This document shows positions 3,459 through 54,000 of a stretch of DNA of 58,038 nucleotides, one piece after another; the first letter of the stretch is position 1; each line of letters opens with the position of its first letter. The notes beneath the pieces were generated by a model. That model saw only the letters and a list, made by a program, of their open reading frames with translations. It had not been told where the DNA came from and made no database searches. A program made the translations under genes and the position numbers. Location: the IMG/VR virus record IMGVR_UViG_3300018428_000023, positions 1 through 58,038 of that record; one strand, 5' to 3'. The DNA is from a virus. Lineage: Duplodnaviria > Caudoviricetes.

Positions 3459-3945
3459 GGATGAACTACCTGGTCTTATATCAGAAGGATTTATTGAAAA
3501 GCAAGAATCTTCTTATATACTAACACCTAAAGCTAAGGCATTAATAACCAAGCTTGATAACTATTTTGTTAAAGCAAAGAAGAAAACTAATATCCAGTTG
3601 ATGGGTAAAGAGTTTAATGACAAGATAGAGGAGTATAGAAATATATTTCCTGCAGGTAAACTACCTTCGGGTAGTCCAGCAAGACAGAATGTAAAAGCCT
3701 TGACAGAATCTTTTAGATGGTTCTTTGAGACTTATGATCATAACTGGGATGTAATTATAAAAGCAACCAAGATGTATGTAAATGAGTACAGAGCAACTAA
3801 CTATAAGTACATGAAGACAAGTCAATACTTTGTAGCTAAACAAGATAAACACAGAGTAAAGCATTCAGAACTTGCAGATTATTGTGATATGATTAATGAT
3901 GGCGTTCAAACAGAAGTCCATCACTTTAAAGAGAGAGTTGTATAA
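3352..3945 (+). CDS. Putative replication initiator/helicase-loader-like protein (N-terminal wHTH)
   Basis: wHTH-like LISEGFIEKQESSYILTPKAK; position upstream of DnaB; function inferred. Confidence 0.4.
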   Translation: MWELFQKILAEKITPNQMLLLYGMKEKIQIGSLKSEDELPGLISEGFIEKQESSYILTPKAKALITKLDNYFVKAKKKTNIQLMGKEFNDKIEEYRNIFPAGKLPSGSPARQNVKALTESFRWFFETYDHNWDVIIKATKMYVNEYRATNYKYMKTSQYFVAKQDKHRVKHSELADYCDMINDGVQTEVHHFKERVV

Positions 3946-4097: not shown

Positions 4098-5046
4098 ACC
4101 AACAGAAGAGTGGGTTGGACAATATGCGTCCTTTAATGATGCCCTTAAATACATGGTTAAACGTGCTAATGGTGAAGAGAAATCTATTTACACACCTTGG
4201 CCTAAGTTTAATGATGCTACTACTGATGGTTTAGAATGGAATACACTTACTGTAATGGGTGGAAGACCTGGTTCAGGTAAAACACTTATTAAAGATCAGA
4301 TCATAAGAGAATCTTTTGCATTAAATCCTAATGATGACTTTAGAGTTCTTGAGTTTCAGTTTGAGATGGTTGGTAGAACCTCAGCATTGCGTGAGTTCTC
4401 ATCCATAACAGGTAAAACTTATAAAGAACTATGTAGTGCTGGTAGTGTATTAACTACAGATGTACTAAACTCTTGTCATCAATATGCAAAAGAACGTGTA
4501 AAGTATCCAGTTGATATTGTATCAAGACCTATGACTGTTAACCAAATGCGTGAACAAATAGACATGTATATGGAAAAACATAAGGGTAAGAAAACAATTA
4601 TTACATTGGATCATACCATGCTTGTAAAGAGAGCACCATATCAGAATAGTAGTTTAGATATGCTATTTGAATTAGGTGAGTTCTTTACACAAACCAAAAG
4701 GGAGTATCCCTGTATGTTTATTGCATTGTCACAGCTTAATAGAAATATTGATAATCCAGAACGTGCACAACAAGGTAAGTATGGGAACTATGTACTTGAA
4801 TCAGATATCTTTGGTTCAGATGCTATGTTACAACATGCTGATACTTTGATTGGTATTAACCGTCCTGCTAAACAGAAGATTAGATTGTATGGTCCAGACA
4901 GGTATATTATAGAAGATGATAGAACTCTTGTTCTTCACTTCTTAAAAGCTCGTAATGGTGATACAAGAATGAGTTTCTTTAAAGCACAATTTGAACGGAT
5001 GGAGATTGCTGAAATGGCAACACCACCACAAGAAGCACCAAGATGA
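4090..5046 (+). CDS. dnaB: DnaB-like (SF4) replicative helicase
   Basis: Walker A GGRPGSGKT, FEM, ITLDH, LSQLNR, GSDAMLQHAD, KARNG. Confidence 0.92.
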   Translation: MSKPTEEWVGQYASFNDALKYMVKRANGEEKSIYTPWPKFNDATTDGLEWNTLTVMGGRPGSGKTLIKDQIIRESFALNPNDDFRVLEFQFEMVGRTSALREFSSITGKTYKELCSAGSVLTTDVLNSCHQYAKERVKYPVDIVSRPMTVNQMREQIDMYMEKHKGKKTIITLDHTMLVKRAPYQNSSLDMLFELGEFFTQTKREYPCMFIALSQLNRNIDNPERAQQGKYGNYVLESDIFGSDAMLQHADTLIGINRPAKQKIRLYGPDRYIIEDDRTLVLHFLKARNGDTRMSFFKAQFERMEIAEMATPPQEAPR

Positions 5047-9104: not shown

Positions 9105-9542
9105 ATGGAAGTATTAAACAAAATTCTGCCTAGTGAATACATTTCACTAAAAAAAATGCTTGGTTCTTCAAGTGAAGATCAAAGCATATGTGTTGAAAAC
9201 ATAAAGAATCTAAATCTAGATCCTATTTACATTGTATTTCTTGCAAAGACTGCTTGCTCATTAAACTATAGAGAAGAGTTTTTAAGCAACTTTAAAGATA
9301 TTTTTGAAGAAGAGCCTTGGCTCTCTACAAAAAAGGTTATACGCAGCAGATGGGGCAATGACTCTACTGTATTTGATTTCTCTTGGGAAATGATTCATAG
9401 CATTATAAAGAAGCATTATTCTAATGATTCTTTTGTTATCAGGTTATTTACCACAGAGTTTAATAATCAAGTATCAAATGAGATAATTGCAAATACAACT
9501 TGGAAATTTGTATCAAAGGTTAATTGTGAAATTATATGGTAA
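9105..9542 (+). CDS. Hypothetical protein sharing a helical motif with the 11971 and 13011 genes
   Basis: ILPSEYISLKKMLGSSSEDQSICVENIKNLNL resembles LTKEEYLNARNMIKSDDKENTALALELLSNCNL. Confidence 0.65.
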   Translation: MEVLNKILPSEYISLKKMLGSSSEDQSICVENIKNLNLDPIYIVFLAKTACSLNYREEFLSNFKDIFEEEPWLSTKKVIRSRWGNDSTVFDFSWEMIHSIIKKHYSNDSFVIRLFTTEFNNQVSNEIIANTTWKFVSKVNCEIIW

Positions 9543-10699
9543 ACATATCTGACCTGCTTGCTAAGGCAAGTAAGACATTAATACTAGAGGAGCCCTTTTA
9601 CGGGCTCTTTTTAGTTGGTCTAAACAAAACATTTAGAAAAGATATCCCAACAGCCGGTGTGAGCAAACATGGTATTGGAGTACAGCTTGCTGTTAATCCT
9701 GATTTCTTTCAAGCATTGAGTCTTGAGCACAGAATTGGATTGGTTAAGCATGAATTACTCCATATTAGTTTTGGACACTTGACTATCAGGGATTTATATG
9801 CTGATAAAAAACTATTTAATATTGCAGCAGACTTGGAGATTAATCAGTACATAGCTTCTGATTACTTGCCAGAAGGCGGTCTAACATTGAATAGTTTTCC
9901 AGAGCTAAAGCTTCCTGTTAAAGCAGGTACTAAAGAGTACTATGATTTATTACAGCAAGCAAAAGAAGAAGGTACATCTCCATCTCTTGATGATCTATTA
10001 GATCAAATGAATGGTGATAGTCCTTATGATCATATGACTTGGGATGAGTTTGATGAACTATCTGAAGCAGATAAAAAGCTGATTCAGAAGCAAGTAGAAC
10101 ATCAACTTAAAGAAGTTGCAGATCAAACAGAGAAAAGATGCGGCAGTATTCCTGGAGAATTAGCTGATCTTATCTCTAGACTTAGACATGTAGAACCAGC
10201 CAAGTTTGATTGGAAAGGTTATCTCAGACGCTTTGTTGGAAACTCTTCTATCATCTATACTAAGAAGCTTAGAAGAAAATACAACAAGAGATATGTTGAG
10301 AACCCTGGTTTGAAAATTAAGTTTAAGAATCACATTCTTGTTGGTATAGACACATCTGGTTCTGTATCAAGGGATGAGTTAAAGGAATTTATGAATGAAC
10401 TCGTGCATATGCACAAGACCGGACATAAAATTACTGTAGCTCAGTGTGATACAAACTTAAATTCAGTAGAAGAGTTTAACCCAAAGAAGGATTGGGAGAT
10501 CAAAGGTAGAGGTGGTACTAGTTTCCAACCTGTCATTGATCATTTTAATGAAAAGAAGGGGCATTATACTGCCTTGATATATTTAACAGATGGTGAAGCA
10601 TGGAACCCTGAGAACTGTCCAGCTAATACTTTATGGGTATTAAGCAGCAGATCGCAGATGAACAATGAGTTACCCGGAAAAGTAATACAGTTAAACTAA
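9536..10699 (+). CDS. DUF2201-type metallopeptidase plus VWA domain protein
   Basis: HELLH (HExxH), NIAADLEINQ; MIDAS DTSGS; GRGGT, YLTDG. Confidence 0.9.
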   Translation: MVNISDLLAKASKTLILEEPFYGLFLVGLNKTFRKDIPTAGVSKHGIGVQLAVNPDFFQALSLEHRIGLVKHELLHISFGHLTIRDLYADKKLFNIAADLEINQYIASDYLPEGGLTLNSFPELKLPVKAGTKEYYDLLQQAKEEGTSPSLDDLLDQMNGDSPYDHMTWDEFDELSEADKKLIQKQVEHQLKEVADQTEKRCGSIPGELADLISRLRHVEPAKFDWKGYLRRFVGNSSIIYTKKLRRKYNKRYVENPGLKIKFKNHILVGIDTSGSVSRDELKEFMNELVHMHKTGHKITVAQCDTNLNSVEEFNPKKDWEIKGRGGTSFQPVIDHFNEKKGHYTALIYLTDGEAWNPENCPANTLWVLSSRSQMNNELPGKVIQLN

Positions 10700-10705
10700 A
10701 GAATT

Positions 10706-11971
10706 ATGGCACAAGTAAATTTAAACATTGATGAAGTAAAAGGTTTTGTAAACCATATCATCAACAACAACAGATTCTTGCAAGAGCAAGGTAAACCACC
10801 AGTAGCAATTGAGGTTGTTGGTGAATCAGGTATTGGTAAAACATCTACGGTTGTAGAACTTGCAAAGGATAATAATTTAAACTTTGTTAAGTTAAACTTG
10901 GCTCAGATAGAAGAGCTTGGTGACTTAGTTGGTTTTCCTGTACGTCAATTCCAGATGTATAAGGAGAAAACAATTAAGAAAGTAGATGATCTTAACTATA
11001 CTACAGCACAGAGAAATGCTGCAGCAGGTGATCTTGCTAATATTAGCGGTACCGTGACCAAGAAAGTTGGTCAGTGGGTTGATGAGCTTGCTGTTGCAGA
11101 ATACTTGAAGAATGGTTATAAGATGACAGGTAAGAATAGAATGTCTTACTGTGCACCAGAATGGATTGCTGATAAGAAAGATGGTGGTATTCTATTGCTA
11201 GATGACTGGAATCGTGCTGATGTACGTTTCATTCAGGCAGTTATGGAATTAATTGACCGTCAGACTTACATCTCTTGGACTTTACCTAAAGATTGGCACA
11301 TCATTCTAACATCAAATCCTGATAACGGTGATTATATGGTTAACTCTGTGGATGCTGCACAGAAGACCAGATATATTACCGCCAATCTAAAGTTTGATGT
11401 AAATGTATGGGCACGCTGGGCAGAAGAAGCAGGAATTGATACTCGCTGTATCAACTTTTTGCTTCTCCACCCAGAGCTTGTAACACAAGAGACTAATGCA
11501 AGATCTATTACTACATTCTTTAATGCCATCTCTAGCTTTGATAGCTTTGAAGACAACCTAACCATGATTCAAATGATTGGTGAAGGTTCTGTTGGTGATG
11601 CGTTTGCTAGTATGTTTACCACTTTTATTAATAATAAACTTGATAAGCTTGTGACTCCTAAAGATTTATTGACTCATGAAAATGAATCATACATCTTAGG
11701 TGAGCTTAGAGGTTGTATTGGTAAAGATGATGCATACCGTGCAGACATTGCATCTACTCTTGCAACTCGTTTGGCTAACTTCTCAGTAGTATATTCTAAA
11801 GAAAATACAATTACTCAGAAGCTTACAGATCGTTTGATTGCATTGTGCACTAAAGATTATTTCACTAATGACTTGAAGTATTTAATTGTACGTACAATCT
11901 TCAACGGTAATAAACAGAAGTTTAATAAAATGATGATGAATCCAGAAATCATCAAAATGACAATGAAGTAA
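10706..11971 (+). CDS. MoxR-like AAA+ ATPase
   Basis: Walker A GESGIGKT, ELGDLVGFP, Walker B LLLDDWNRA, TSNP; adjacent to the VWA gene. Confidence 0.88.
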   Translation: MAQVNLNIDEVKGFVNHIINNNRFLQEQGKPPVAIEVVGESGIGKTSTVVELAKDNNLNFVKLNLAQIEELGDLVGFPVRQFQMYKEKTIKKVDDLNYTTAQRNAAAGDLANISGTVTKKVGQWVDELAVAEYLKNGYKMTGKNRMSYCAPEWIADKKDGGILLLDDWNRADVRFIQAVMELIDRQTYISWTLPKDWHIILTSNPDNGDYMVNSVDAAQKTRYITANLKFDVNVWARWAEEAGIDTRCINFLLLHPELVTQETNARSITTFFNAISSFDSFEDNLTMIQMIGEGSVGDAFASMFTTFINNKLDKLVTPKDLLTHENESYILGELRGCIGKDDAYRADIASTLATRLANFSVVYSKENTITQKLTDRLIALCTKDYFTNDLKYLIVRTIFNGNKQKFNKMMMNPEIIKMTMK

Positions 11972-13014
11972 TGGCAAGTAAATCAGTATATCAAGAATAT
12001 AATACTGATGCACTAGATCACTTTGGATTAGAGACAGCCTCATACTATGGGGTTGTCTCATCCAGTGGTGTAGACACAGTATTGTTTACAGATTCAGAAA
12101 CAACATATGATAAGGTTAAGGATCTTCTTAAAACTAACACCTTAAGTGGTACTAGCTTTAAAAATAAGAAAAAGGCTTTCTTATTACCTAAGAGTCCTGT
12201 ATCTCTAGACAGAGTAAGAGCTGCATGTAAAGAGCATAAAATTACAATAACAAATGATTATGAAGCAGCTGATTTAATTATATCTCATAGTGATTTCTCA
12301 CAAAGATTTGAGCACGGTGAAACTATTAAATCAACAGTAATGATGGGTAAGTTTTGGAACTATCATACTGCAGTTGATAGTGGAGGTCCCTCAAAAAACT
12401 TTGTAGATGAGTATTTTGAAACAACAGGCTATGAAATTTTAATTGATACAAAGTCTGAAGATCATATACGTATATATGGTTGTAGTAATGGTGAATCTTT
12501 ATATGATTCTTGGATGATCACCGGTATGGCTCTTGATTTAGCTTATAAAATAGATTTAGGTGAGCTTGATATTATTGATGTAGATACTGTAGTATCAGAA
12601 TCTGCAAATAAACAAGAGTTAACTGAAGATCTAATGAGAACTTTAATTACTCAGGTTAGTTCATACAATGAAGAAGATCAGTCAATGGCTGCTATGGTTC
12701 TTCCTACAATTGATTATACTAAAAATCATCATTTACTTTGGCAATTTGCTCAGGAGTGTGGTCATAAGATGTATAATTTCAACAGGAACAAAGACGTCCA
12801 ATATTGGTTAAGTGCTTCTAATTTTATGAAGATGCATAATATGAATGCTCAATCTATGATACAATGGCTTGAGAAAAAGGAGTTACTTAGCTCTGAAAAC
12901 TTTAGATATTTAGAACCTATTGTAAGAAAAGAAATCACCATTTACAATAGAGACCTATATGTATTTAAAGTTGAAGTTAAACCGGAGTATAGAAAATATT
13001 TAAAAAAATTATGA
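11971..13014 (+). CDS. Hypothetical protein, paralog of 13011-14126
   Basis: FLLPKSPVSLDRVRAACKEHKITITNDYEAADLII aligns by eye with FYRYPKLTLPRMKVDLLKEKANITITRSKDTADYKII. Confidence 0.7.
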   Translation: MASKSVYQEYNTDALDHFGLETASYYGVVSSSGVDTVLFTDSETTYDKVKDLLKTNTLSGTSFKNKKKAFLLPKSPVSLDRVRAACKEHKITITNDYEAADLIISHSDFSQRFEHGETIKSTVMMGKFWNYHTAVDSGGPSKNFVDEYFETTGYEILIDTKSEDHIRIYGCSNGESLYDSWMITGMALDLAYKIDLGELDIIDVDTVVSESANKQELTEDLMRTLITQVSSYNEEDQSMAAMVLPTIDYTKNHHLLWQFAQECGHKMYNFNRNKDVQYWLSASNFMKMHNMNAQSMIQWLEKKELLSSENFRYLEPIVRKEITIYNRDLYVFKVEVKPEYRKYLKKL

Positions 13015-14126
13015 CAAATTCAATTAACGTAAGGCAAATAAGATTAACGGATAATAATGGTCTATATAGTGGTGTTAAAGAAGAAGAAATTAGAGAGTTT
13101 CTCTCTGGTGAAAATTCTAACTCAGGTATTAATCAATTTAATATAATACTACCTGAACCTACACTAGCATCTATAAAAGATAAAAGTTTCTATAGATATC
13201 CAAAGCTTACTTTGCCAAGAATGAAAGTAGATTTGCTAAAAGAAAAAGCAAATATTACTATCACAAGAAGTAAAGATACTGCTGATTATAAAATTATATC
13301 AGAAAGATATCTTAATTCTCTGAGTGATTATAGCTGGTCAAAGCTTTATACAACAGAAAGCATTTTAGAAGAGTTAAATAACAATTCTAATAACTTCACA
13401 CATGATTGTATTACTGAGTTTAAAAGTCTTTTAAATGCGTATCCTGATGATTATTGGGATATAAAACAAGGTTGGTATTATAACAGTGTCTATAGACTTA
13501 CGGATAATTTAGAATGTGCTTATCATAACTATAAGTATATAAAAGAATCAGATGTTTCAACCTTTAATGAAATATTAAATTCAAACAATCTTTTATTAGA
13601 TACTCAGTTAAATACTATTATATATGAAGACATGCATGTTCTTACAAAAGAAGAGTATCTTAATGCAAGAAACATGATTAAATCAGATGATAAGGAAAAT
13701 ACAGCATTGGCATTAGAATTATTGTCTAACTGTAATCTAAATGAATCTTTTGATTATGTTGCTTTGTTATTTTACTTTTATCATGATCATTTAAAAGAAG
13801 CAAGAAATTGGAATAGTATTAATGTAAAAACTTTGAGAAATACTATGTCTGATTTTGTAGCAAATAGTAATGCATCTTATGGTTATTATTATAACAACTT
13901 CTTGCAAAAGTTAATTCATCATGATAAACTGACGGAATTTGCATTTAAAGAAGTTGCTAGATATGCATTTCACAATGTTGTAAAAAGATCATTAGGATTA
14001 TCTGATGAATCTGTATTTACTGTTAATCTTGATGCAATTAAAATCAATCCTAAATACAAAGATAAGATTAAATCAAATCAGGATTTTTTTATAACTGATC
14101 TTGAAAAAGCAGTTGCAAAATTTTAA
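13011..14126 (+). CDS. Hypothetical protein, paralog of 11971-13014
   Basis: Same two shared motif blocks; ATGA coupling. Confidence 0.7.
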   Translation: MTNSINVRQIRLTDNNGLYSGVKEEEIREFLSGENSNSGINQFNIILPEPTLASIKDKSFYRYPKLTLPRMKVDLLKEKANITITRSKDTADYKIISERYLNSLSDYSWSKLYTTESILEELNNNSNNFTHDCITEFKSLLNAYPDDYWDIKQGWYYNSVYRLTDNLECAYHNYKYIKESDVSTFNEILNSNNLLLDTQLNTIIYEDMHVLTKEEYLNARNMIKSDDKENTALALELLSNCNLNESFDYVALLFYFYHDHLKEARNWNSINVKTLRNTMSDFVANSNASYGYYYNNFLQKLIHHDKLTEFAFKEVARYAFHNVVKRSLGLSDESVFTVNLDAIKINPKYKDKIKSNQDFFITDLEKAVAKF

Positions 14127-14193
14127 GGAGAATTAGCCATAATTGTGGGGGATTCTTGATTCGCGTATTGCAAATTGAGATCCCCCCTCCTTA
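14124..14193 (+). ncRNA. Candidate structured RNA (bulged long hairpin)
   Basis: TAAGGAG/CTCCTTA outer stem, 16-nt 5' bulge AATTAGCCATAATTGT, inner helix GGGGGA..TCTTGATTCGCG/TGCAAATTGAGA..TCCCCC with G-U pairs that favour the + strand. Confidence 0.55.
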
Positions 14194-14209
14194 TTTAATG
14201 TATTAATAA

Positions 14210-15187
14210 ATGGACAAAAACGCACTAGATAGTTTTTATAATGAAACATTTCAGTTTAGTTACTCATCACTAAACAAGTTATTGTTTTCACCATCCTTGT
14301 TTTACAAGGACTATATATTGAAAGATAGAGAACTAAAGACAGACAAATATCTTATAGAAGGTAAGCTTGTACACTGTTTAGTATTTGAACCAGAGAATCT
14401 AAAAGAAAAGTTTAAGATTGTCCCCGATAAAACACCAACTGATAGCGTAAGAAAAATTCTACACAAAGTTCATGATAAAGATAAGAGTGTAGATATTATG
14501 ACTGCAGATGATCTTATACTTGAAACTCTTCGTGAAGAAAATTTATATCAGACATTAAAAGAAGACTCTGCTAGGCTTGCAAAGATTCAAACAGAAGAAT
14601 CTAAAATCTACTGGAAGTTCATTGCAAACCCAATGGTTGATGTAATAGATCAGGATACCCTGGCTAAGTGTACAGACTATGCAGAAATAATCAAAGCTAA
14701 TACAGATGTAATGGCTTTATTTAGTTCTACCTCCACTGATTTTGATCTTGATCCTGTTCAAACATATGCAGAGAAGCCTCTTAATTGTGAGCTTAAGGAT
14801 AAACCATTTGGTTTGAAAGGCATCATTGACTTCTATAAAGTAGATGATGATGAAGAGTTGGTCACAATTTGTGATCTCAAGACAACCAGCAAATCAATAT
14901 CTGACTTTAAAGAAACAGTGGAGTTCTATAATTACTGGTTGCAAGCGGCAATATATTGTAAACTAGTTTTTGAAAATCTTGATGAGTCACAACAGGATTA
15001 CAATTTTATTTATAAATTTGTAGTGATTGATAATTACAAGCAGGTCTATGTCTTTGATGTATCACCTGAAACTTTATCAATGTGGACGCAAGGTTTAGAA
15101 GAAACATTAAAGGTTGCAGACTATCATTACACTCAGAGAGATTTTTCCTTGCCCTATGAATTTTTAGTAGAAAAGGTTATCTTATAA
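14210..15187 (+). CDS. PD-(D/E)XK exonuclease (RecE/DUF3799-like)
   Basis: SYSSLNKL, GKLVHCL, KGIIDF, CDLKTT, YWLQAAIY. Confidence 0.85.
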   Translation: MDKNALDSFYNETFQFSYSSLNKLLFSPSLFYKDYILKDRELKTDKYLIEGKLVHCLVFEPENLKEKFKIVPDKTPTDSVRKILHKVHDKDKSVDIMTADDLILETLREENLYQTLKEDSARLAKIQTEESKIYWKFIANPMVDVIDQDTLAKCTDYAEIIKANTDVMALFSSTSTDFDLDPVQTYAEKPLNCELKDKPFGLKGIIDFYKVDDDEELVTICDLKTTSKSISDFKETVEFYNYWLQAAIYCKLVFENLDESQQDYNFIYKFVVIDNYKQVYVFDVSPETLSMWTQGLEETLKVADYHYTQRDFSLPYEFLVEKVIL

Positions 15188-15188
15188 T

Positions 15189-15770
15189 ATGATGGGTGTA
15201 TACACACAATATTTTCAAAAGAGTAAAGTATTTCTTTATCCGCTTTTAAAGCTGAAAAAAGGAATAGCTTTTGTCCCAGAACAAACATACATTGCCTGGG
15301 ACAAACTTTACTCTCCTGATGATATGAAATTAATGTGTTTATACAATGCAGAATCATCAACAAAATACTTAAGCTTTGAAACAAGATATCTTAAATCACA
15401 CCCACTTTTAGAAGCATACTTTCAAATAGATGAGAATAAGCATGTATATGTATTTGATATGTCAGAATATAAGTATGATCATAAAGCTTTTGTAAAGGGT
15501 AAGTATTCTAAATTTAGTTTACGTTCTAAAGATATAATTAAAGAATTCTTTGGAACTGTAGGAAATATATCAGACTATGTAGTTAGTTTCCTACGCCCTG
15601 ATGAATATCATGAATTATACGCAGATGCTTTAGGTGTTGATCTTGATCTCATAAAAAATGTTTATGAGTTATGTTCACCACCAGACCTTGAGAAAGAAAC
15701 AATTTTTGAGAATATTCCACAGGAGATTGAAATTTTTGGAAACAATTCAATATCTTTGGATAAATTTTAA
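15189..15770 (+). CDS. Hypothetical protein
   Basis: Full-length ORF in operon context; no motif recognised. Confidence 0.7.
   Translation: MMGVYTQYFQKSKVFLYPLLKLKKGIAFVPEQTYIAWDKLYSPDDMKLMCLYNAESSTKYLSFETRYLKSHPLLEAYFQIDENKHVYVFDMSEYKYDHKAFVKGKYSKFSLRSKDIIKEFFGTVGNISDYVVSFLRPDEYHELYADALGVDLDLIKNVYELCSPPDLEKETIFENIPQEIEIFGNNSISLDKF
15751..15758 (+). promoter_or_regulatory. Bacteroidetes-type -7 element (TATCTTTG)
   Basis: 17 nt before ATG 15776; TTG with a 21-nt spacer upstream. Confidence 0.55.
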
Positions 15771-15775
15771 AACCA

Positions 15776-16198
15776 ATGGCAAATACATTAGGTAACAACA
15801 TGATGCTTGTACACTCTGTTTTCAGAAATGCAAGATCTTTTAGTTTGATTCCGGTGAGTAATGATTCACCATACGTTGAAGCTATGTTTGATCCAGCATC
15901 AAGCATTTTAGCAGTAATTACAAAAGATAGAAAACAATCATTCCATATGATGCCTCGTCTGGATGATAATGGTCAACCCCAAAGACTAAAGACTCCTAAC
16001 ATGGAGACAGGGAAGACCGTTAAAGAACAAAGAGTTCAGATTGATACATTCAATGAGTTCTATCTAAATGAAAAAGCAGATATAGAAACCTTTGTTGAAC
16101 TATTTGCAATCAATGCATCCTCTTTTGATTATAAAAGCTTCTTGGATGTAGATGTAAAGGAAACAAAAGTTTCAAACATCATAATGCCGGGTCAGTAA
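15776..16198 (+). CDS. Hypothetical protein
   Basis: ORF flanked by its own promoter and terminator candidates. Confidence 0.75.
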   Translation: MANTLGNNMMLVHSVFRNARSFSLIPVSNDSPYVEAMFDPASSILAVITKDRKQSFHMMPRLDDNGQPQRLKTPNMETGKTVKEQRVQIDTFNEFYLNEKADIETFVELFAINASSFDYKSFLDVDVKETKVSNIIMPGQ

Positions 16199-16220
16199 GC
16201 TTACACTCACCCAAACAAAG

Positions 16221-16243
16221 AGAGCCCCTTGTGGGCTTTTTTT
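16221..16243 (+). terminator. Intrinsic terminator
   Basis: AGAGCCC-CTTGT-GGGCTTT followed by a T-tract. Confidence 0.75.
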
Positions 16244-16265
16244 GGCACCTATAAAAAATGCAGAT

Positions 16266-18257
16266 ATGAATCACTGGGTAATGGACTATGAGACATTATC
16301 AAATTGCTTTACGGCAGTATTTGAACACTATAAGACTACAGAAACAAAAGTCTTTGTTGTTCATGATCTTCGTAATGACTTTGATGATTTCATAGATTTC
16401 TTAAAACAAAATACGGATAACCGGGAGTGGCATATTTCTTACAATGGTTTAGCGTTTGATGCACAAATCACACACTATATCATTGAGAACTATGAACTCT
16501 GGGAAAATCTGAGTGCTGGTGATATAGCTGGTATTATATATGAATATGCTGGTAAGTGTATAGCTCGTAGTGATGCTAAAGACTTTCATGACTACCCACA
16601 ATGGAAAATGTGTATAGGTCAGATTGATCTTTTTAAGATGCATCACTGGGACAACCCAGCAAAAAGATCTAGTCTTAAGTGGATACAGTATAGTATGGAC
16701 TGGGATAACATGCTTGACATGCCTATAGACCATTCTGTTAATATAACCACAATAGAGCAGATTGAAACAATTCTGGATTACAATATCAATGATGTGAAGT
16801 CTACTAAAGAAATTTTTAATAGATCTCATGAGTTGATTAAATTAAGAAAGGAATTGACTAATACGTATAGTATTAATCTATACAGTGCATCTGAGCCTCG
16901 TATAAGTAAAGAGCTTTTTGCTTATTACATGTCAGAAAAACTAAACATCCCAAAAAGAGACCTTAAGCAATTAAGAACTTACAGGAATGTTGTTAGGGTT
17001 AAAGATATTATCTTACCCTATATAAAGTTTGTATCTCCTGAATTCAAGAGTTTACTTGATAGATTTAACGCCTTGGAAATTAATCCAGAATCATTAAAAG
17101 GTGTTTTTAAATATTCTGTTACATACAAGAATGTTAAAACAGACTTTGGTATTGGTGGTGTTCATGGTGCAAATAAATCAGGAGTGTATGTATCTGATGA
17201 TGAGTATGTTATAATGTCTTCAGACGTTACATCATTCTATCCTAATTTGGTTATTAGAAACAAATGGTCACCGGGGCATTTCCCTGCAGAACAATTTTGT
17301 GATCAGTATGAATGGTTCTTTGAAGAGAGAAAGAAGATACCTAAGAGTAATCCAATGAACTATGTTTACAAGATTATTCTTAACTCAACCTTCGGTCTTA
17401 GTAATGATAGGAACAGTTTCTTTTATGATCCAGAATTAACTATGAGAATTACAATTAACGGTCAGCTTAGTCTAATGTTATTGTATGAGATGATTATGGA
17501 ACGTATACCAAATGCATTAGCAATTATGCATAATACAGATGGTTTAGAAACTAAGATACCAAGAGAGCATGTAGATACTTATATGGAGATTTGTAAAGAG
17601 TGGGAACAGATAACTAATTTACAGTTAGAACATGATGAATATCAAAAACTCGTTGTTGGTGATGTCAACAATTATATTGGCCTCAACAACTACAAAGAAG
17701 TTGATCTTACTACCTGGAGAGAAGTTAAAAGAAAAAACCCTCATTACAAATTCAAAATAGAAAGAGACAAGTTCTACTTTGCTCCAGCTAAACTAAAGGG
17801 TAGATTTGATTTCTATGGATTACAACTACATAAGAATAAGTCTAAGCTAGTGATACCCAAGGCAATATATAATTATTTTATACATGATATTATACCGCAG
17901 GATTATCTAGATCAAAACAAAAACATATTAGACTATTGTATTGGTGGTAAATCTAAAGGAGATTGGAAACAAGTAGCAAAGTATATAAAGGATCAGAAAT
18001 ATCAAGAAGAGGATCTTCAGAAGATTAATCGTTATTATATTTCTAACTCAGGGATCAAGATCATTAAAGTAAATAAGTCAGATGGCCGGGAGATTCAACT
18101 TGAATCTGGACAGTGGTTGCAGACTGTATTCAACAAGATGAAAATTGAACCCAAGTGGGAGAACTATAATATTAACAGAGCGTATTATCTAGAAGCTATA
18201 GAGCAAGAGATAGATAATATTACTAATGTGAGCAGTAATCAGCTTACTTTATTTTAA
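16266..18257 (+). CDS. polB: Family B DNA polymerase with 3'-5' exonuclease
   Basis: Exo DYE, YNGLAFD, YNINDV; polymerase motifs SDVTSFYPN, KIILNSTFG, NTDG; ATG 16266 preferred over TTG 16242, which lies in the terminator. Confidence 0.92.
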   Translation: MNHWVMDYETLSNCFTAVFEHYKTTETKVFVVHDLRNDFDDFIDFLKQNTDNREWHISYNGLAFDAQITHYIIENYELWENLSAGDIAGIIYEYAGKCIARSDAKDFHDYPQWKMCIGQIDLFKMHHWDNPAKRSSLKWIQYSMDWDNMLDMPIDHSVNITTIEQIETILDYNINDVKSTKEIFNRSHELIKLRKELTNTYSINLYSASEPRISKELFAYYMSEKLNIPKRDLKQLRTYRNVVRVKDIILPYIKFVSPEFKSLLDRFNALEINPESLKGVFKYSVTYKNVKTDFGIGGVHGANKSGVYVSDDEYVIMSSDVTSFYPNLVIRNKWSPGHFPAEQFCDQYEWFFEERKKIPKSNPMNYVYKIILNSTFGLSNDRNSFFYDPELTMRITINGQLSLMLLYEMIMERIPNALAIMHNTDGLETKIPREHVDTYMEICKEWEQITNLQLEHDEYQKLVVGDVNNYIGLNNYKEVDLTTWREVKRKNPHYKFKIERDKFYFAPAKLKGRFDFYGLQLHKNKSKLVIPKAIYNYFIHDIIPQDYLDQNKNILDYCIGGKSKGDWKQVAKYIKDQKYQEEDLQKINRYYISNSGIKIIKVNKSDGREIQLESGQWLQTVFNKMKIEPKWENYNINRAYYLEAIEQEIDNITNVSSNQLTLF

Positions 18258-23291: not shown

Positions 23292-23600
23292 TTATCCTTT
23301 TTTCCATTTAGTGCTACTAGACTTTGTTTTACTAGGAGACCATTTTACTTTATCAGCCCAGTAAGCAGCACTCATTTTACCTTTTTTAATATTTTTAGCA
23401 TGTCTGCTTTTAAATGCCTTACGTTGTCCTACAGTTTGATTTGTTTTAACACCCTGTTGTCCAAAGCGGATAGTTTTAACTTTATCTCCTTCTTTAGCCA
23501 CAACTATGTGTGACTTAGTAGGATGAGATGGGGTTCTCTTAGGTTTATTATACCCAGAGACCCCAGCTCTTGTTAATCTACTATCTTTTTTATCAGCCAT
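23292..23600 (-). CDS. Small very basic protein
   Basis: K/R-rich; KSHIVVAKEGDKVKTIRFGQQG...FKSRH...SAAYWADKVKW. Confidence 0.75.
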   Translation of the reverse strand: MADKKDSRLTRAGVSGYNKPKRTPSHPTKSHIVVAKEGDKVKTIRFGQQGVKTNQTVGQRKAFKSRHAKNIKKGKMSAAYWADKVKWSPSKTKSSSTKWKKG

Positions 23601-23606
23601 ACTTTA

Positions 23607-27016: not shown

Positions 27017-27259
27017 TTATCGTTTTTTGCCTTTATGTAATCCATGACTAGCATGTTGTTTACCTTTTTTAGTTGCAGCTCTTTTCTTTTTATTTGCTGC
27101 TGCTAATTTTTTTCTACCCGCTGCAGTACTCTTAAGCTTAGATATTGTTTTAGATGGAGCATAGACTTCACCAGTTTCTGAAGACTTTTTACCAGAAGGA
27201 GTTCTCCACTTCTGTTTAGTCCATCTATCTAAACTTTTTTGTCTTTTGGTTTTAGCCAT
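27017..27259 (-). CDS. Small basic protein (resembles the C-terminal part of DUF5872-like proteins)
   Basis: QKSLDRWTKQKWRTPSGK...GEVYAPSK; very K/R-rich. Confidence 0.7.
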   Translation of the reverse strand: MAKTKRQKSLDRWTKQKWRTPSGKKSSETGEVYAPSKTISKLKSTAAGRKKLAAANKKKRAATKKGKQHASHGLHKGKKR

Positions 27260-45000: not shown

Positions 45001-48000
45001 TTGCGTTTCTTTACCGTCTTTGGCTAGTCTTTCATATTGCTCATTAAACTTATTGTATCTAACACCATTAAATTCAATTTGAGGAATTGTTTGACCGCCA
45101 ACAACTTTACTACGGATTTCAATATTATATTCTCCTAATAGGTTTAAGTATAAGTTTGGTAGTACGGCAGCACCAATTGCACCGGCACCTTCTTTATTAT
45201 TCTTAAATGCTCTTCCTTTACCAAATAGGTTGTCTACATCTATACCTTCTTCTTCAACCAATTGAGCTAGTTCTGGCAATTCTTTTTGAATATCCTCCCA
45301 TACATCAGTTAATGGTGTAAGTACAGCAGGGTCATAAGCAATAGGATTTTCTCCATCTTTTCTTGCAACCGTATTACCTTCATTACCCCACAAAGCAAAC
45401 TTATAATCTAATAATTGATTGTTTAATGCTGCCTCATATGGATAACCAAACTTATCTCTATAAGCAACAAACTCTTCTACTGTTGTTGGCAAGCCTAAAA
45501 CTTTCAATGAAGTAGTAATTCCTTTACCAATAAGTCTTGCTTGTAAATCAGTATATTGCCCTTCTCGTCTTAATCTTCTCTTACCTTTTTCAAGAGCTTT
45601 TGCATATACAGATGATGGAGAGTTTATTTCTTTTCCAACATAGTGTATGTAGTCATCAAACTGTTCTTGATCAGTTCTTGTGGTATCACCATACTCAATG
45701 AACTTACCATTTTTAATATACCACTGTTTCATTTGAGTGTATACCTTATCAATATCAAAGTCAGCTCCTGATATTTCAATAAGTTCTTTTGAGAATATTG
45801 CAGTGGAACCATATGATGATGGTAAGAAGTCAACAACCTTTGTAGCTAATGCAGAGTGTTTATCCTGTGAAGGAATACGTACAGCAAACATTTTAGCAAA
45901 TGCGTCTGGCATAGGCTTACCTGTTTCCTCTATCATCTCCATAATTTGTTCAGAGAATGCAGGCATAATAGATTCCGTGTATCTTACCCCAGTAAAGTTT
46001 CCATCTTGATCATACTCTTTAAGATTGTGTCTTAGTTCATCTCTAACAATAACACCTTTACCATTTGATCTTTCAATTGCATCTGCTAATCCTACAAGAT
46101 TGCCCTCAGAGTCTATGTCAATTTCTATTGGTAATGGATTGCTATTATAAACTTTATCTCTAATGACTTCAAACTTATCTGGAACACCGTTTTCATCTAC
46201 AGAGAAAACACGTCTTATAACCTTCACACCACTATCAGACATAAGAGCTAAAGCATCTCCGGCTACTTTTTCTGACATTGTTTCTTTGGTAAAGTATGAT
46301 AAGAATAGTTGTTCAAACTTATCAATTACCATAGGGTTATTCAAATCATATTGACCACTTGGATCAAAGAACTCAATGACATTACTAGAGGCCTGACTTG
46401 CTTTAAGACCTTCTTGAGCAAATTGTAAAAAGTCTCTTAACTCTATTGTTAAAGACCCCAGCTTTCTACTATCATCTAATGATCTCATTGCAGTTTCTAA
46501 ACTGAAATCAGCAATAAGATTCACCTTATTATGATATTTAAGATTTAGTCTAGCAGCTGTTCCTCTATTATAGAGTTCTCTTAGTTCACCTAAAGTTTTA
46601 GATACATAACCATCTAAAGTTTTAATCATCACCTCTACGGTATCTACCTGTTCTGAAGTAATTAAACTTCTTAGCTGTGTTGGATCTGTAATCTTTTGTT
46701 TATTAGAAGGGTTCACCAATTGCAATCCAATAAATCTAGCATTAAGCATTGTGTGCGGTAATGCTTGAGCATTAGGATTAAACTGACCAAACGCTGCTTC
46801 ATTGCTAACAACATTTGGTTTCATCATTTTACTTGCACTAGCTGGTGCAGCCATTGCTATTGTTTGATCTCCATCAGCTTCAATCTTTTCAAGCTTCAGC
46901 CTTAAGTTATGTAGCTCTTCATATTGAGCTTTGGCTGTTCCATCTTTTCTTGTCGTAAGTTCTGGAGTTAAAACAACTGCAGACATTTTAAGGAATGTTT
47001 GACCATCACCATAAACAAGTTTTAGTGAGTTAAATACACTTCCTTGTTTGATATGACCACCAGCAGCATAATATTCTTTTGGTGTTACCGTTTCACCTCT
47101 TTCTAATTTATTTAATAGTTCTGCTTTATCTTGTGTAAGCTCTGCAAAACCAAATAGCATATGACGCAATGCTTTGGTAGTAATATAAACCTGAGCATCT
47201 GTTCTCTCACCTTGACCACCAGAATACTTTTTATTAAATAAAGTATCACTAAATGTGACAAGAGATATATTTTCAGTTGCGTGATAAACACCACGACTTT
47301 CATCAATAACAGGTGTGTAAGCACTCTTATATGATGCATTTTGCATCTTAGCTCTTTTAACCTTATCAACAGAATCCTTTAAAGATACAGCTTGATCACC
47401 CAGTAGTAATTGATTAATTGCTTTTGTGTTTAACCAATCATTAAAGAAGATCTGCATTAAGTTATAATCTTCATTATCTCTAACAAGATTTAACTGTTCC
47501 ATTGCAGCATCACCTTGTGCTACACCATTGTCATCAGTAATACCATTTAATATATCTGAAGAAATTAAATCTTTAACACGTAAGTTATCCAGTTCTTGAG
47601 CAAATCTTTCATACTCTGACATCAATCTAGTTTTAAGCAAGTCTTTAAAATCACTTACCGTTACAGATGATTCATTAAGCATTCCAATTGCTTCTTCTAA
47701 TGAAATGTCAGGATTATTTATTGCTATTTGTTCTAACTCTTCTTTAAAATCAAACTCTTGTTGAGTAGCTATTTCTTCTTGGAATTGATCATAAGGAACA
47801 AGTTCATAACCAAATCTGGTCTTTTTCCCTTCCAAGAAATCCTTCATTACTTTAGTCTCAACATATAGTGTAGTGTCACCAACATTTACAGCAAAGTTAA
47901 ATTGTTTGGATTTTTCTAGTTGAACCGCATCCCCCATTGATTTAACAATGTTAGATATATTGGTGCTATCAACTTTTGTTTGACCCAACGCTCTTAAAAC

Positions 48001-51000
48001 AAAAACACCCTCTTGTTTTCCAGATCTAACTGTAACATTTGCTCTTGTGTTTTTTAGCGTTAAACCTATTGTCTTAGCCTGAGCATCACTAACATATACA
48101 GTTTTTTGCGTTCCTTCTAATACTCTATTTCCAATTTCTGAAGTAAACTTGGGATCTTTAGCATCAACTCTGGTTTCTTCTTCTTTTGTTGTTTTGAGTA
48201 AACTTGCTGTATCATTAAACTGATAAGCCCTACCTTCATTATCAGTGAGGACACCATTCTTAGCATTGTATCCTTCTATTGGTACTTTATCTTCATCAGC
48301 TTTGCTTGATTCTCTTTGAATTCTTTCAAACTCTCTTCTAAGTTCTTCAAAGAATAAATTAACAGTAGGTTCTGTAATTGTAACTTGACCACTTGCATCA
48401 AATTCAACAGTCTTAATAATAGGTAAACTAAGTAAATCACCAGTATTAGATGCTTCAATAACTCTAATAAGAACAGGAGCCAATGCAGTTTCTACAACCT
48501 CGTTGTCTTCATTTGTAAATACAACAGTTTTATTCTGTTGTTTAAATGCCTGGTAATTAGCTAAATAGGAATTCACTAAAGTTGCAGTAAACTCTGCACC
48601 AGTTAGACTACCATATGTTTTACCATCTTTATCTAGAGCTACTCCACCATTTTCATCTAATGCGTTTTCATCAGTAGATCCCAATGCGCTTTCTTTTGTA
48701 CCAGCAATTCTAAGAACACTTAACCTTTCTTCTTCTGACAACTGCATAAAAGCAGGACTGTTCAAAAGAATATTGGTTAGATTATATCCTTCCTGACGTT
48801 GTCTTAAATCTTTAAGGAAGCTTGCATCATTTAATTCTTGTACCATTTTTAGATGATACGTTGGCATTTGGTGAGCATAAACAAAATTACCCTCTGCATT
48901 TAAGAATACACTTTGTCCAATTGTCTCATCAAACAAGGCATTATTCTTTGCAAGCAACTGCAATCTAGATTTAATACCGCCTTTTCTTGTAAACAAGTAA
49001 GCTGATTTTCTTCTTGATGTTTTATTTAGCTGTAGTTGTTTTGTAAACTCTACGATTGTATCTTTACTAATACCCTCAGCTTGTTTGTTACTTTCAACTA
49101 AAGATTGTTGATACGGAGTTCTGTTTTGAATGTTCTTAGCAATAGTAAATTCAATGTAAGCGGGAGATAGTTTTATACCTACAGTCTCATATATATCATT
49201 AGATATCTGAGTAGCAACAGATGAAAGCTCAGAGTCTTCCATTTCTTCCATAGTTTCCAAGTAAGGTAATAAGCTTTCAAGAGCATCTACTGCATTGAGC
49301 ATGTCAACTTCACTTTCCTTGATAGCTTTAAATCTTTCATTATGTGACTGTTTCCATACATCAATCTGATTAGCTGCATCGTCTCTATTAGCTGCATTGT
49401 ACAACAATAGTTTTCTACCTTGAACGCCTCTTTTTGTATTAACGTGAGCAAATAAATAATCTACTCTAAAGTTTTCAAGGCCTTTATACAACTCATTGAA
49501 GAATACACGGTTTGTGATGCTATCAAGTATTTCTTCTCTTGTTCCAGTTAATACAATCTCTTCTGATGTACCCAATGTTCTAAAGATCTTATCTACAACA
49601 GCTGCTGTTTGTCTGTTACCTTTAGAAAATGAAAGCATTGCTCTAAGAATACTAATCTCATCTGTTAGATTTTTTACAGACTTAAGAAGACCATTATAAG
49701 CACTCTGATAATCTACAGGAATAAATATTGCACCCTTACCGTCTAGTAATTCTGCATTACCAAACTCATCAGTTGCTTCTATCTTTGTTGTACCTATAAA
49801 TGCTCTAAATGCAACAGGCAAGCTAGAGAAACCACCAATCATTGATTGATCAGTATTCCAATCACCAACACCTCTTAAACCTTGATCATATTCTATTTCC
49901 TCATTTGCGTACTCCTCATCTTTTATTTGTCTATCAAATAAAGAAATATATTGAGCAACTGCATCGTATGTATTTTTCTCATACTCTGCTTTCTTAATTG
50001 TCTTTTCTACGGTTTCTTCACCAATCACACCACCCAATGCAGTGTAAATCTTGATCATCTTTTCAATTTGATCTCCAGACTTATTGCTATTGTGATCTGC
50101 CATAGGATCATAGAGTTCTCTAAAATCCTCAATAACTCTCATAACAAGTTCTTGTCTAGTTTCTTGATCTTCTATTTTACCACCCTGTAGTCTTGTTAAG
50201 TATGTACCGGTCATGGTTCTGATTAAAGTATCAGCTGTATCAGGATCAAGATATTTTTTAGCAACACCTCTCTCTAATTCTATTTCATCATAAGCAAGAA
50301 CCTTAAAAGCTTCTAATGTAACACCAGGTTTGAGACCTTGTGTAAACATATTATTCTGTACACCAGCTGATTTATATTTACCAGCATCAATGTTTCTGAA
50401 TAGCTTTTGCAATTCACTAACGCTATATGTACCAAACACATTCTTAATCCACTCAATAAGCCTATTAAAGAATGACTTAATTACAGAACTGGTTTCTGTT
50501 GATCTAGGATTAGTTTTAAACTTCTCAAACTCATCAGCCAAATATTCTTCATAGTACTCTCTCTTGAGTTGCTTTTCAGACATATTCTGATATTTCTCAG
50601 CAGAGTTTTTGAACTTCTGTAGTTCTTCTGCAAGAGTTTTACCTTCTGCTTTAAGCTTAGCTCTTACTTCATTAGCTGCTATAGCCAAGTATTTAGTTTG
50701 CTCTTCTTCACTAAGTAATAATCTAAACACTGCATGGAAGGCTTCATGGTATCTAAAACCTTTTGAACCTACATATACAGTACCACCTATTTCTAGTTGA
50801 CCAGCAAGATTTCTAAGATGCATAGCAAACAAACCAACAGGTATACCATTAGTTTTTAGTCTTTCTGCTACTTCACTAATATCTCTAATCTGTACAAACT
50901 CAGGTAGATTTTCTGCAGCCCAAGTAATAAATGTATCAATATCTTCAACATCTTCAACTGAAAAGTCTTCATCTACAATCTTAGGAGCAAAGCTACTTAA

Positions 51001-54000
51001 GATTCTTTCTCTTTTCTTAAACTCGTCATTAAGTTCATTGTAAGCTTGATCTACACCTCCAACTAAAATGTTGGTTAAATCTTTATTTGTTAGTTCACCA
51101 GCATCAACTTTTGCTTTTAAATCAGCAACGTAAGCCTCTCTAGCAGCTTTTGCTTTATCATATTCATTCTTAGCTTCAACATAATCATCATCCGCTTTAG
51201 TCTGACTTTTTAATTGAGATGCTTTAAACTCAATCATGTTGGTAAGTACATTATACACTATACCTTCTCTTTCAGAAAGAGCTTCACCAACGGCATAGTT
51301 AGCGGCAATAGCATCTAAGAATTCAGAATCAATACCCTCAAAGTTATTTGCTCTAAGTTCTTCAAACTCTTCTTCACTCAGTTCATCAACAGTGGCTGTA
51401 GACAATTGATTATTTAAGTTGTCTAATGTTTCTTGAGCATTTGAGTTATCTGCAACATCATCATCAGCTACACTATCTAGAGCTCTTTGAGCACCAATAT
51501 ATTCTTCTACAGAAGCTTCATCTACAGAGTAATCTAAGTATACATCATAAAATGCTTCAGGATTAATATTAGTGGTTGTAAGGTATCTAATTGCCTGTGC
51601 TGAAATCTCGGTAGGTATATTCTTTCTAAATGAATCAGAGGTTGCTTTTAACTTCAGACTTTTTACAGTTGCATCTGCATTCATTGCAGCATTCAAAGCA
51701 CTCATTAATTTATCAAAAGAATCAACTTCTGTTGCAGATGGGTCTACAAATGCGGAGAATAGCTTTTTATCATTTACTGTATCAATAAGTACTAGCTCTA
51801 AGGCACCACGAGCACTTACCTTTAGCTGAGCATCATAACCAGATTTCAATGAAATATAAAACTTATCATTGAACTCATCATTAAAGGTGTCGTTGTATCC
51901 CTTAGACTTAACTACTTTTTTACCTTCTACAGTATCAACGTTTTCTTCAGCTGTTTTAGCAGCCCGGTCAAGCATCTCTTGTAAAAGTCCATCCTTGCTT
52001 TCCTGATCAAGAGCTGTTGATTTTAATGGAGCAAATACAATGTTGCCGTTAGGTGTTTTAATTACAGCATGATATCTATCAGTTGTTCTATCACTCTTAA
52101 GGTAATCTAGTAATGATGTACCATTCTGTAATTTTTTATTATTGAGTTCAGCTAAAACTTTATTTCTTAATTCCTTATGTTCTTTAGAACCTTTAGGATA
52201 GTTTGTTTTAACATCTATAATTCTATTTCTCTTCTTAGTCTGAGGATCTAATCTATAACTATAGTCAATTACAACAAATTCTCCATCATAAGTATTGTAT
52301 GGTAAAGATTCTACTGCGGTTTGAGTATCACTATAAAGATTACTGTATCCTTGTCTGACACTCAGCATTTCTACAAAATCAGATAAGAACATGTTTTCAT
52401 AGTCATCTGTTCTATCTAAAATTCTTTTTCTTATTATTTGCTGAGTTGCTAAAGCTCTAATGGCTGCAACAGGATCTGAGAAATATTTTTTTGCTTGTTC
52501 TTTTGAAAGAGTAAATGGATTTACTTCTGAACCATCTTCTGCAAAGAATTTTAAATTACCTGAAGGTAACTGAATATCTACAGAGGTGATAGAACCAGAA
52601 TGTCCATTTTCTTTTAATATATTATTTACTTTATTTCTAACTTCAGGATCAGCTATAACAAGTCTAAAGCTGTGAGATTCTTTAGTATACTTAATTAATG
52701 GATTTACCTTACCCTTGGAATCTTTAAAGTCAAATAAATCAGAAGATTCTTCATTAACATCAGCAAATACTCTAATTTCTTGTAGATCTTCTGCAGAAAG
52801 ATTTTGAAGTAATATGGATAATATTGTCTCACCTTCTTCTCTATCAAGAGTATCTGACATTGGATATACACCTAAGATATTAGGAATACCAACTCTTGGC
52901 ATATCTTTAGTAACAAGAGTTTCTGCAAAGGATTCTTCCAACACAGAGAACTTAGACTTAAACTCATCAGCGGTTACTCTAATAGCTGCCTTTTCTCTTT
53001 GTTTAGTTGTTTTGTATTTCTCTATATCTTCCTCTGGTACTATAAATAGAGTACCGTTAGATTCTACTTTAGCAGGTGTACCTAAAGAAACATATCTCTT
53101 ACCTTTCTTATCTACTACAATATCACCATAGTGAAGGGTTTGTCCCGCAAATTCAAAAGGATCTGTTTCTGGTACTGTGCTTAGCAGTGATCTCCAAACT
53201 TTTTTAGCATCTGAAATCTTAGAGTATGATGCTCTAATTTTGCTTTTGTCTATACCAGCTGCTTCATAAAGTTCATCAGAAATCTCTGCACCGTTAGAAA
53301 GCTCAACAATATATTGATCTACAAGCTTGCCCTCTACCTTAGCTTTAGTTTTTCTAATTCTAACTCCAGCACGCTCTTCAACAATCTTATCTTTGCTATT
53401 TGCAGGAGTAGATTGTTTTTGATCAGAAAGAACTTCAAATGATAAACCAACGCTTTCACCAGCATCTATAACTAGTTCACGCACTTGGTCATTATCTTTA
53501 TTAGCCTGGATCCATTCTTTGAATCCTCTCTCTTCTTTAATTACATCAGCTATATCTGGTTTACTCTGATCTAAAGAAGCAACCCATAATGCTTTTAAAT
53601 CTGTAAGAATAGAAGCAATCTTCTGTCCTTCTTTAGACGCACTATATTGTTCAAGAGATAGTCTTTGCTTACCGGTTGCTGTTCTTGCAGCGTTTACACC
53701 TTTATGTATTCTTCTAAGTATACCTTTTGCAAAAGCATTTACAGACTCGTCATTGTTAATGACCTTTGCCGCTTTATCAGAGTCAGGTGCATCTTCATCA
53801 AGTTCTTCTTCTATATCTTCTGCATCTTGTACTTCTTCTGGTTGAGTTAATTTGATATAGTTATTTTTAATTCTTTCAATTTCTATAACTTTATCTGCGT
53901 CAACTGTTTTTTGAACAAGACCGTTTTCTGTGTAAAAAGTTTGAAGAAACTCTGGATTACCCGTTTCTAAAAATAGTTCTGCTTCAGCCGGATCAGGTAC

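Follow-up and report, generated by a model that had tools for sequence, protein, structure and literature searches.

The c4 RNAs of phages P1 and P7 are structured phage antisense RNAs in which short exposed single-stranded stretches mask the start region of a target in the same operon; a c4-type RNA is a discrete, processed RNA of ~77 nt, and it represses its target. Small RNAs derived from 3' untranslated regions and spacers follow a stop codon, have a terminal hairpin that they share with the upstream mRNA, and carry a U-rich tail and a conserved seed. In the Bacteroidota, start selection is described as depending on the context of the AUG, and small RNAs of the GibS type in Bacteroides as repressing by annealing across start codons that lack a Shine-Dalgarno (SD) sequence (PMC7366714). 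Among crAss-like phages, the account given of the cultured phage phi14:2 places the replicative module early, transcribed by the virion RNA polymerase, and the capsid module late, the most abundant transcript being that of the major capsid protein (MCP) (10.1101/2020.03.07.982082). Translation control without SD sequences, in crAss-like phages and in the Bacteroidota, is poorly understood.

The element considered here, a hairpin in an operon spacer of an uncultured environmental crAss-like phage whose hosts are presumed to be Bacteroidota, resembles c4 in having an exposed loop complementary to a start region in the same operon, that of an ATPase gene. It differs from c4 in showing no similarity to it in sequence or by Rfam model (none at an E-value of 10 or below; over positions 14050-14270 the best Rfam E-value was 1.1, and every score lay far below gathering). 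It differs also in architecture, for c4 has two seeds in hairpin loops and a downstream target, whereas the element has one seed in a one-sided internal loop and an upstream target, and in setting, its system being SD-less and its second candidate target a late capsid gene. In the 3'UTR-derived small RNAs the seed lies 5' of the hairpin; that of the element lies inside the hairpin, in the internal loop, and the 3' end is predicted. With GibS, as far as the published description of that RNA goes, the element shares a conserved single-stranded seed complementary to SD-less starts; GibS, however, is encoded by the host on its own between genes and carries a long, unstructured seed at its 5' end, whereas the seed described here sits between two helices, in a spacer that begins at a stop codon within a phage operon, and is known from sequence alone. 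The early non-coding RNAs reported from the rightward early region of phi14:2, whose function is not known, match the element in phage group and in its presumed timing, but as described in that report they are long intergenic regions near the genome start, unlike the element (10.1101/2020.03.07.982082).

A full-text search of the literature, with supplements outside its scope, found no riboregulator of Crassvirales, and the element may be the first RNA regulator proposed for them. What would set it apart from the known systems is a seed placed in a one-sided internal loop, a spacer that opens at a stop codon, and a capsid gene as putative target. If the pairing is true, antisense control would be built into an operon spacer, with its seed in the internal loop of a terminator-like hairpin. 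The short conserved motif would act on the surroundings of the AUG in an early ATPase gene and in the late gene with the highest expression, which makes the hypothesis testable by compensatory mutation, and sequence and structure together provide a signature for an uncultured lineage of salt-marsh and marine crAss-like phages.

The window, by which we mean the whole stretch of 58,038 nucleotides that was analysed, is a 58-kb fragment of a viral contig, ~50% complete. The element occupies positions 14124-14193, between a 371-aa ORF and a PD-(D/E)XK nuclease gene (Table 1), in a long plus-strand cluster that includes helicase, primase, AAA-type ATPase, nuclease and DNA polymerase genes. The closest GenBank records by protein are gut crAss-like phages (~25% identity for the nuclease), and the 538-aa gene of a complete relative, G001, matches Crass_capsid, the Crassvirus major capsid family, at 3e-32. 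DNA similarity to positions 12000-16500 was not found among GenBank phages, nor was any tRNA or tmRNA found in the whole window. Ahead of the 441 ORF starts taken from six related genomes, A rises to 0.66 at position -3 and the frequency of G is at most 0.12 at every position from -20 to -1; there is therefore no SD signal at these starts, and the SD-less initiation assumed at the outset holds. Judging by the timing of the phi14:2 genes, the element would be part of an early RNA.

Table 1. Coordinates in the window of the element, its parts, its flanking genes and the gene starts complementary to its loop.
Feature	Position	Strand	Remark
421-aa AAA-type ATPase gene start, GAATT-ATG-GC	10701..10710	+	9 nt complementary to loop in window
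Upstream 371-aa ORF	13011..14126	+	no known family; stop codon opens P1
P1 5' strand, TAAGGAG	14124..14130	+	opens with the TAA stop codon of the 371-aa ORF
One-sided internal loop, AATTAGCCATAATTGT	14131..14146	+	16 nt, nothing opposite; holds anti-start CAU
Near-invariant loop core, GCCATAATTG	14136..14145	+	conservation across family members
P2 hairpin	14147..14186	+	G5/C5 base, variable apical part
P1 3' strand, CTCCTTA	14187..14193	+	stacks directly on P2
T-rich tail, TTTAATGT	14194..14201	+	terminator-like look
Downstream PD-(D/E)XK nuclease gene	14210..15187	+	start 16 nt past P1
102-aa ORF start, T-ATG-GCT	23595..23601	-	weak 7-nt complement (AGCCATA at 23595)
80-aa ORF start, ATG-GCT-AA	27252..27259	-	weak 8-nt complement (TTAGCCAT at 27252)
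1882-aa ORF start, AATT-ATG-GCT-AA	42090..42101	-	12-nt loop complement; overlaps TAA stop of 4996-aa ORF

The sequence folds into an outer helix (P1), a one-sided loop and an inner hairpin (P2). In a 91-nt context the minimum free energy is -28.8 kcal/mol (z -4.0) and none of 200 shuffles folds as well, so that the hairpin of the original prediction is real by this measure, and all the k-mers quoted with it are present. Over the ensemble, the mean unpaired probability is 0.59 for the loop core vs 0.12 for P1. The self-pairing of the bulge, which had been raised as a caveat, is possible in part in the window; the mini-helix is weak and is not kept across relatives. The apical part of P2 is shortened or replaced in relatives. 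No Rfam family matches at gathering anywhere in the window.

We have seen the element in about 28 related crAss-like genomes. Ten of 54 viral loci collected through the nuclease gene share its architecture, seven with the element directly upstream of the nuclease (L001-L003, L006, L007, L009, L010) and three with it one gene further upstream (L022-L024). Pattern scans of viral contigs add at least six more (L116, L141, L271, L322, L336, L352), and 80 metagenome loci chosen without bias, by way of the ATPase gene, add 16 among the 56 that are long enough to be judged; a search for related loci through the upstream 371-aa ORF gave one only. Many relatives are without the element, including L008, a close relative of L007, and L435 has a different, plain hairpin at the site. 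By covariance model the element is present in single copy, always at the same syntenic site, in G001, G002, G003 and G005, and dispersed extra copies were not found in these four genomes; it is therefore not a mobile repeat of the MITE or REP-like kind. No element is called by the model in 28 element-lacking loci, where no match does not equal absence, for this model (R1) detects only loops of the ..TTGT and ..TTGA types and misses the longer GATTGTTA-type loops (G004, L271, L336, L352) as well as L409. In a broader contig scan none of the stretches listed, at least 120 in number, had the architecture, a result that is uninformative on the host. The matches listed by 14-mer scans of viral contigs are mostly chance.

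The covariance model built from relatives, a check proposed at the outset, bears out the stems. Across 18 distinct family rows, in an alignment that was fitted to the model structure, 95.8% of cells pair and 12/15 pairs change on both sides (P1 5/7, P2 7/8); the covariation score is 0.594 vs 0.198 for shuffled alignments, none of 500 of which reaches it, and slid registers score at most 0.155. The plus strand folds better in 14/14 elements, with G.U at 27 of 252 pairs, which assigns the structure to the sense RNA. Its geometry is likewise conserved: among 14 distinct elements the loop length ranges from 13 to 21 nt, and 13 of the 14 have no base facing the loop; in 15 of the 21 members examined the upstream stop codon and the 5' end of P1 overlap (offset -6 to +1). 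The stems both turn over, yet the core GCCATAATTG shows no change in 10/10 aligned diverged members. Core variants were met in three metagenome members, L378 and L417 with one substitution each and L409 with a 2-nt insertion, and the substitution in L417 is compensated in its own ATPase start.

The ATPase start, listed originally as a minor match, and the MCP start are, across relatives, the conserved partners of the loop. The ATPase gene lies two genes, or 3.4 kb, upstream of the element, in the same operon and on the same strand. Its 421-aa product had been called MoxR, a label that stays putative: the protein matches phrog_1297 'ATPase' at 1e-34, and its Pfam matches, to AAA/AAA_5, are weak and below cut-off. 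In the window the duplex of loop and ATPase start reaches -12.2 kcal/mol, third of 56 starts. In-register complementarity extends over 9-13 nt in 22/23 distinct combinations of loop and start, and over 10-13 nt in most relatives. The exception is G003, whose ATPase start is complementary over 5 nt only and whose best duplex does not stand out from those of shuffled loops (a fraction of 0.40 do as well, in a control that leaves GCCAU free and thereby overstates the significance of duplex energies); the contig is 82% complete, and the loop is kept. In six genomes AATTATGGC occurs nowhere but in the element and at true gene starts, two of which recur across genomes.

Loop and ATPase start also change together. 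In G011, L391 and L403 a loop of type ..TTGA(T) faces the start (A)TCAATT, where elsewhere ..TTGT faces ACAATT; in L417 a G-to-A change in the core is accompanied by C-to-T at position -5 of the start; and L373 has AGCC with GGCT vs TGCC with GGCA in its sister L378. In L368 position -6 forms a G.U pair, allowed in RNA only. Mismatches are found in several lineages, among them the G at -5 in the window, the changed core of L378, and AGCC loops facing GGCA starts. Cognate pairs of loop and start are complementary over 10.65 nt on average vs 10.29 nt when permuted, and 158/5000 permutations reach the observed mean, a modest signal (p about 0.03) drawn from rows related by descent. Covariation of bulge and target, a check proposed with the original prediction, is suggested for the ATPase start by the three compensatory changes and this permutation signal, in related lineages whose tree is a polytomy; the 1882-aa start, which had been put forward as the target, differs in G001 and G003 although the loop is the same.

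The MCP gene lies outside the window and is missing from the G003 contig as well. In G001, G002, G004 and G005, the four genomes that hold both gene and element, the MCP start region has the same sequence, aaCAATCAATTATGGCAACTCC, and is in every case complementary to the genome's own loop (over 10, 12, 17 and 16 nt, respectively); in G004 and G005 it gives the top duplex of all starts, by about 9-10 kcal/mol. In L141, L391 and L424, P1 and loop together read GGAGTTGCCATAATTG(A), an exact antisense match to the MCP consensus, and at least 13 further MCP starts of the aaCAATCAATTATGGCAACTCC type occur in viral contigs. In phi14:2 the motif is absent, and there is no meaningful antisense match to the phage's own MCP start.

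The start motif goes with the element. AATT occupies positions -4 to -1 of the ATPase ATG in 27/28 element-bearing vs 1/59 element-lacking genomes (Fisher p 3e-20, with rows that are related), the motif CAATTATGGC is absent, one MCP start excepted, from five element-lacking genomes, two of them complete, and CAATT occurs once among the MCP starts of six element-lacking genomes. Phylogenetically the association is weak: the ATPase tree is a polytomy, its best version needs five changes of element state, well-supported branches force only one and provide only one supported independent pair, and the tree does not fix the number of independent events. The clearest contrast is between G012 and L368, which have both element and CAATT, and their sister clade G009/G020/L385/L386, which has neither, a split supported at 99/90 in one tree and at 84 in another.

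We suggest that this structured RNA of the sense strand is an antisense riboregulator of translation initiation in an SD-less system, a reading that we judge somewhat better than an even call. A strand-specific, covarying scaffold, a constant loop and start words that change in step with it make RNA-RNA pairing over the AUG the simplest interpretation, and it is in this form, with loop conservation, stem covariation and loop/start co-variation behind it, that the idea of an exposed loop antisense to AUG-GC starts survives, shorn of the 1882-aa gene as its main target. P1 and P2, coaxially stacked, would hold out the one-sided loop, whose core GCCAUAAUUG would pair with CAAUUAUGGC at translation starts, at the ATPase in cis or in trans and at the late MCP in trans only. 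Such pairing would occlude the start codon and most likely lower initiation; capsid synthesis could be held back while the early RNA dominates, and ATPase synthesis could be tuned. Since P1 starts at a stop codon and a U-rich tail follows, the element may have a second role in termination or as a 3' end, and its folding, or the exposure of the loop, could respond to ribosomes that finish translation just upstream. Pairing in vivo, the sign of its effect and its action in cis or in trans are all things that we infer from sequence comparison. Stacked helices close the loop, and unless P1 opens, a duplex of 10-17 bp within it is under topological strain. Four metatranscriptome runs (X19, X20, X22 and X24) gave 1-4 short contigs at a depth of 2-16, none of which spans the element; one contig starts at 14184 and another at the P2 5' end of a relative, and these inconsistent ends speak neither for nor against a discrete RNA.

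We would also entertain, as a distinctly speculative elaboration with little probability, a switch working in both directions, by which the RNA would time infection by crAss-like phages. In the early phase the loop would mask the start codons of capsid and ATPase; late in infection the abundant MCP mRNA would invade the loop together with the P1 5' strand, which is antisense to MCP codons 3-4 in several lineages. P1 would then open and P2 would be parted from the U tract, altering the termination or decay of the early replication operon, with ribosomes that stop at the UAA inside P1 as a third input. If true, this would be a start-codon-directed riboregulator replacing SD-directed control in phages of the Bacteroidota.

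The main rival to antisense riboregulation, which we consider unlikely though deserving of serious attention, is that the element is an intrinsic terminator or a protective 3' hairpin closing the ATPase-ORF347-ORF371 unit, its loop kept on different grounds, for instance because a nuclease or an RNA-binding protein recognises it, and its complementarity to starts a relic of an inverted copy of the MCP start that forms no pairing today. The G+C-rich stem is indeed followed by a T-rich tail, with at least 4 T in 8 nt in 15/21 members, but in the other six the tail is weak or absent (0-3 T), the element is not called by a consensus scan, and early genes may use the virion RNA polymerase with other terminators. 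A terminator would also suit the position of the element, since the stop codon marks the beginning of P1 and in most members 13-21 nt separate P1 from the next gene, and the plain hairpin at the element site of L435. The antisense match of P1 and loop to MCP codons 1-4 in some members does suggest an origin as a copy of the MCP start. A relic would decay, however, and here a 10-nt core is held while both stems turn over, and where the loop varies the ATPase start varies to match; an RNA-binding protein, for its part, leaves the complementary motif at gene starts unexplained.

Complementarity between RNAs is formally identical to one double-stranded DNA word present in both orientations, and it is conceivable, if rather improbable, that CAATTATGGC is bound as DNA by a phage regulator at the ATPase start, at the MCP start and, inverted, at the spacer, the inverted repeats around it being incidental or a terminator. 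The word is found in 3-4 places per element-bearing genome and, apart from the single MCP start already mentioned, in none of the five genomes without the element, as such a regulator would have it. Yet the fold that presents it, always in its single-stranded loop, covaries, is strand-specific and has G.U pairs, and the G.U of L368 is a mismatch at the DNA level. The concordant changes at two sites (L417, the G011 clade, L373) fit base-pairing rather than a fixed protein specificity, and a site across the ATG and second codon is an odd position for an operator.

The original prediction had a dedicated early sRNA that mainly silences the 1882-aa virion gene or host AUG-GC messages, and this we now hold to be very unlikely. 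The 12-mer TTAGCCATAATT does occur in the window at 14133 and 42090 only, and the start of the 1882-aa minus-strand ORF (ATG at 42097) is its reverse complement and gives the best loop duplex in the window at -15.7 kcal/mol; this antisense relation is confirmed. As evidence, the 12-mer is at chance level: of 300 random 70-nt segments, 236 have an exact word of 12 nt or more in common with another place in the window, in either orientation, and 12 is the longest that the element shares elsewhere, the fixed-word expectation of 0.03 for a 12-mer being a post hoc figure. Nor is GCCATAATTG with at most one mismatch enriched in the window (3 found vs 4.6 expected). Across relatives the start is complementary in only two of four: the homologous giant gene of G002, with a protein 96% identical, starts TAATTATGGCTAAG and is complementary to the loop, and that of G005 starts AATAATTATGGCAAC, a partial complement of 9 nt, but those of G001 and G003 start ATAAAATGAGCAAG and TATAAAATGAGTAAA (also written AAAATGAGC and AAAATGAGT), which are not complementary despite loops identical to that of the window. 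The 1882-aa gene is thereby lost as the headline target, and its start and other AATT-AUG-GC starts are most likely lineage-specific extras.

A chance hairpin of no function in an A+T-rich spacer, to which the shortness of the spacer and the absence of the element from many relatives (L008 among them) might point, is scarcely credible against conservation and covariation over about 28 genomes, in which the ATPase proteins diverge by as much as about 16%. Three further ideas about the loop and stem were rejected. A small minus-strand ORF beginning at the loop's ATG has lengths of 5, 8, 5, 18 and 63 aa and no common frame; pairing of the loop with the nuclease start just downstream is not conserved on inspection of the loci; and the P1 3' strand as a mimic of the 16S 3' end or anti-SD is at odds with the covariation of P1, for example AAGGGT with ACCCTT. 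The shorter matches to gene starts that accompanied the 12-mer in the original prediction are all present in the window, at 23595 and 27252 (Table 1), at 2162 (AGCCATAAT) and at 10702 (the complement of GCCATAATT).

Two of the related crAss-like lineages carry something else where the window has the P1/one-sided loop/P2 RNA element. At the same intergenic site, locus L435 has a plainer, different hairpin, rich in G+C and followed by TTTTGCATTT; this hairpin is without the anti-start loop, yet AATT is present at the L435 ATPase start. In the element-lacking relatives of the G009 lineage, represented by locus L385, the position is occupied by an extra gene of 277 aa and by a pair of long spacers, each measuring about 180-190 nt; for one of these spacers, folding at -42 kcal/mol is predicted.

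A close relative without the element, G018 (the contig of L008; loci L232 and L236), matches the ATPase gene in two pieces, covering residues 1-172 and 170-421. Because these pieces lie about 1 kb apart and the read-through between them contains stop codons, the arrangement suggests an insertion, perhaps an intron or homing element, or else a disrupted gene.

In the window, only 6 nt separate the stop of the DUF2201 gene from the ATG of the AAA-type ATPase gene, and the loop's target covers this junction. The two genes resemble a MoxR-VWA type pair, here placed within a phage replication module. Upstream of the major capsid protein (MCP) gene in related genomes, repeated AACAATCAAT-like units (e.g., aataataacaatcaataataacaatcaattATG) stand in the 5' leader immediately before the ATG, and might represent a late promoter or a translation-enhancing leader element.

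Coordinates of genes, spacers and repeats in the window and its relatives
Feature	Source	Position	Strand	Remark
DUF2201 metallopeptidase/VWA-like protein	window	9536-10699		directly 5' of ATPase gene
AAA-type ATPase gene	window	10706-11971		next after DUF2201 gene
4996-aa ORF	window	42100-57090	-	giant ORF
1882-aa ORF	window	36449-42097	-	giant ORF
Hairpin	L435	about 3536-3616 nt after ATPase start		
Spacers	L385	about +3470-3653 and +4486-4679 from ATPase start		
MCP leader repeats	G002	near 97925	-	also in MCP upstream regions of G001, G004, G005

The giant ORFs are arranged head to tail, the stop of the longer one falling just 2 nt ahead of the ATG of the shorter (junction TAATTATG). [quoted passage not shown] This contig probably represents an abundant but unrelated RNA or organism with a short stretch in common.
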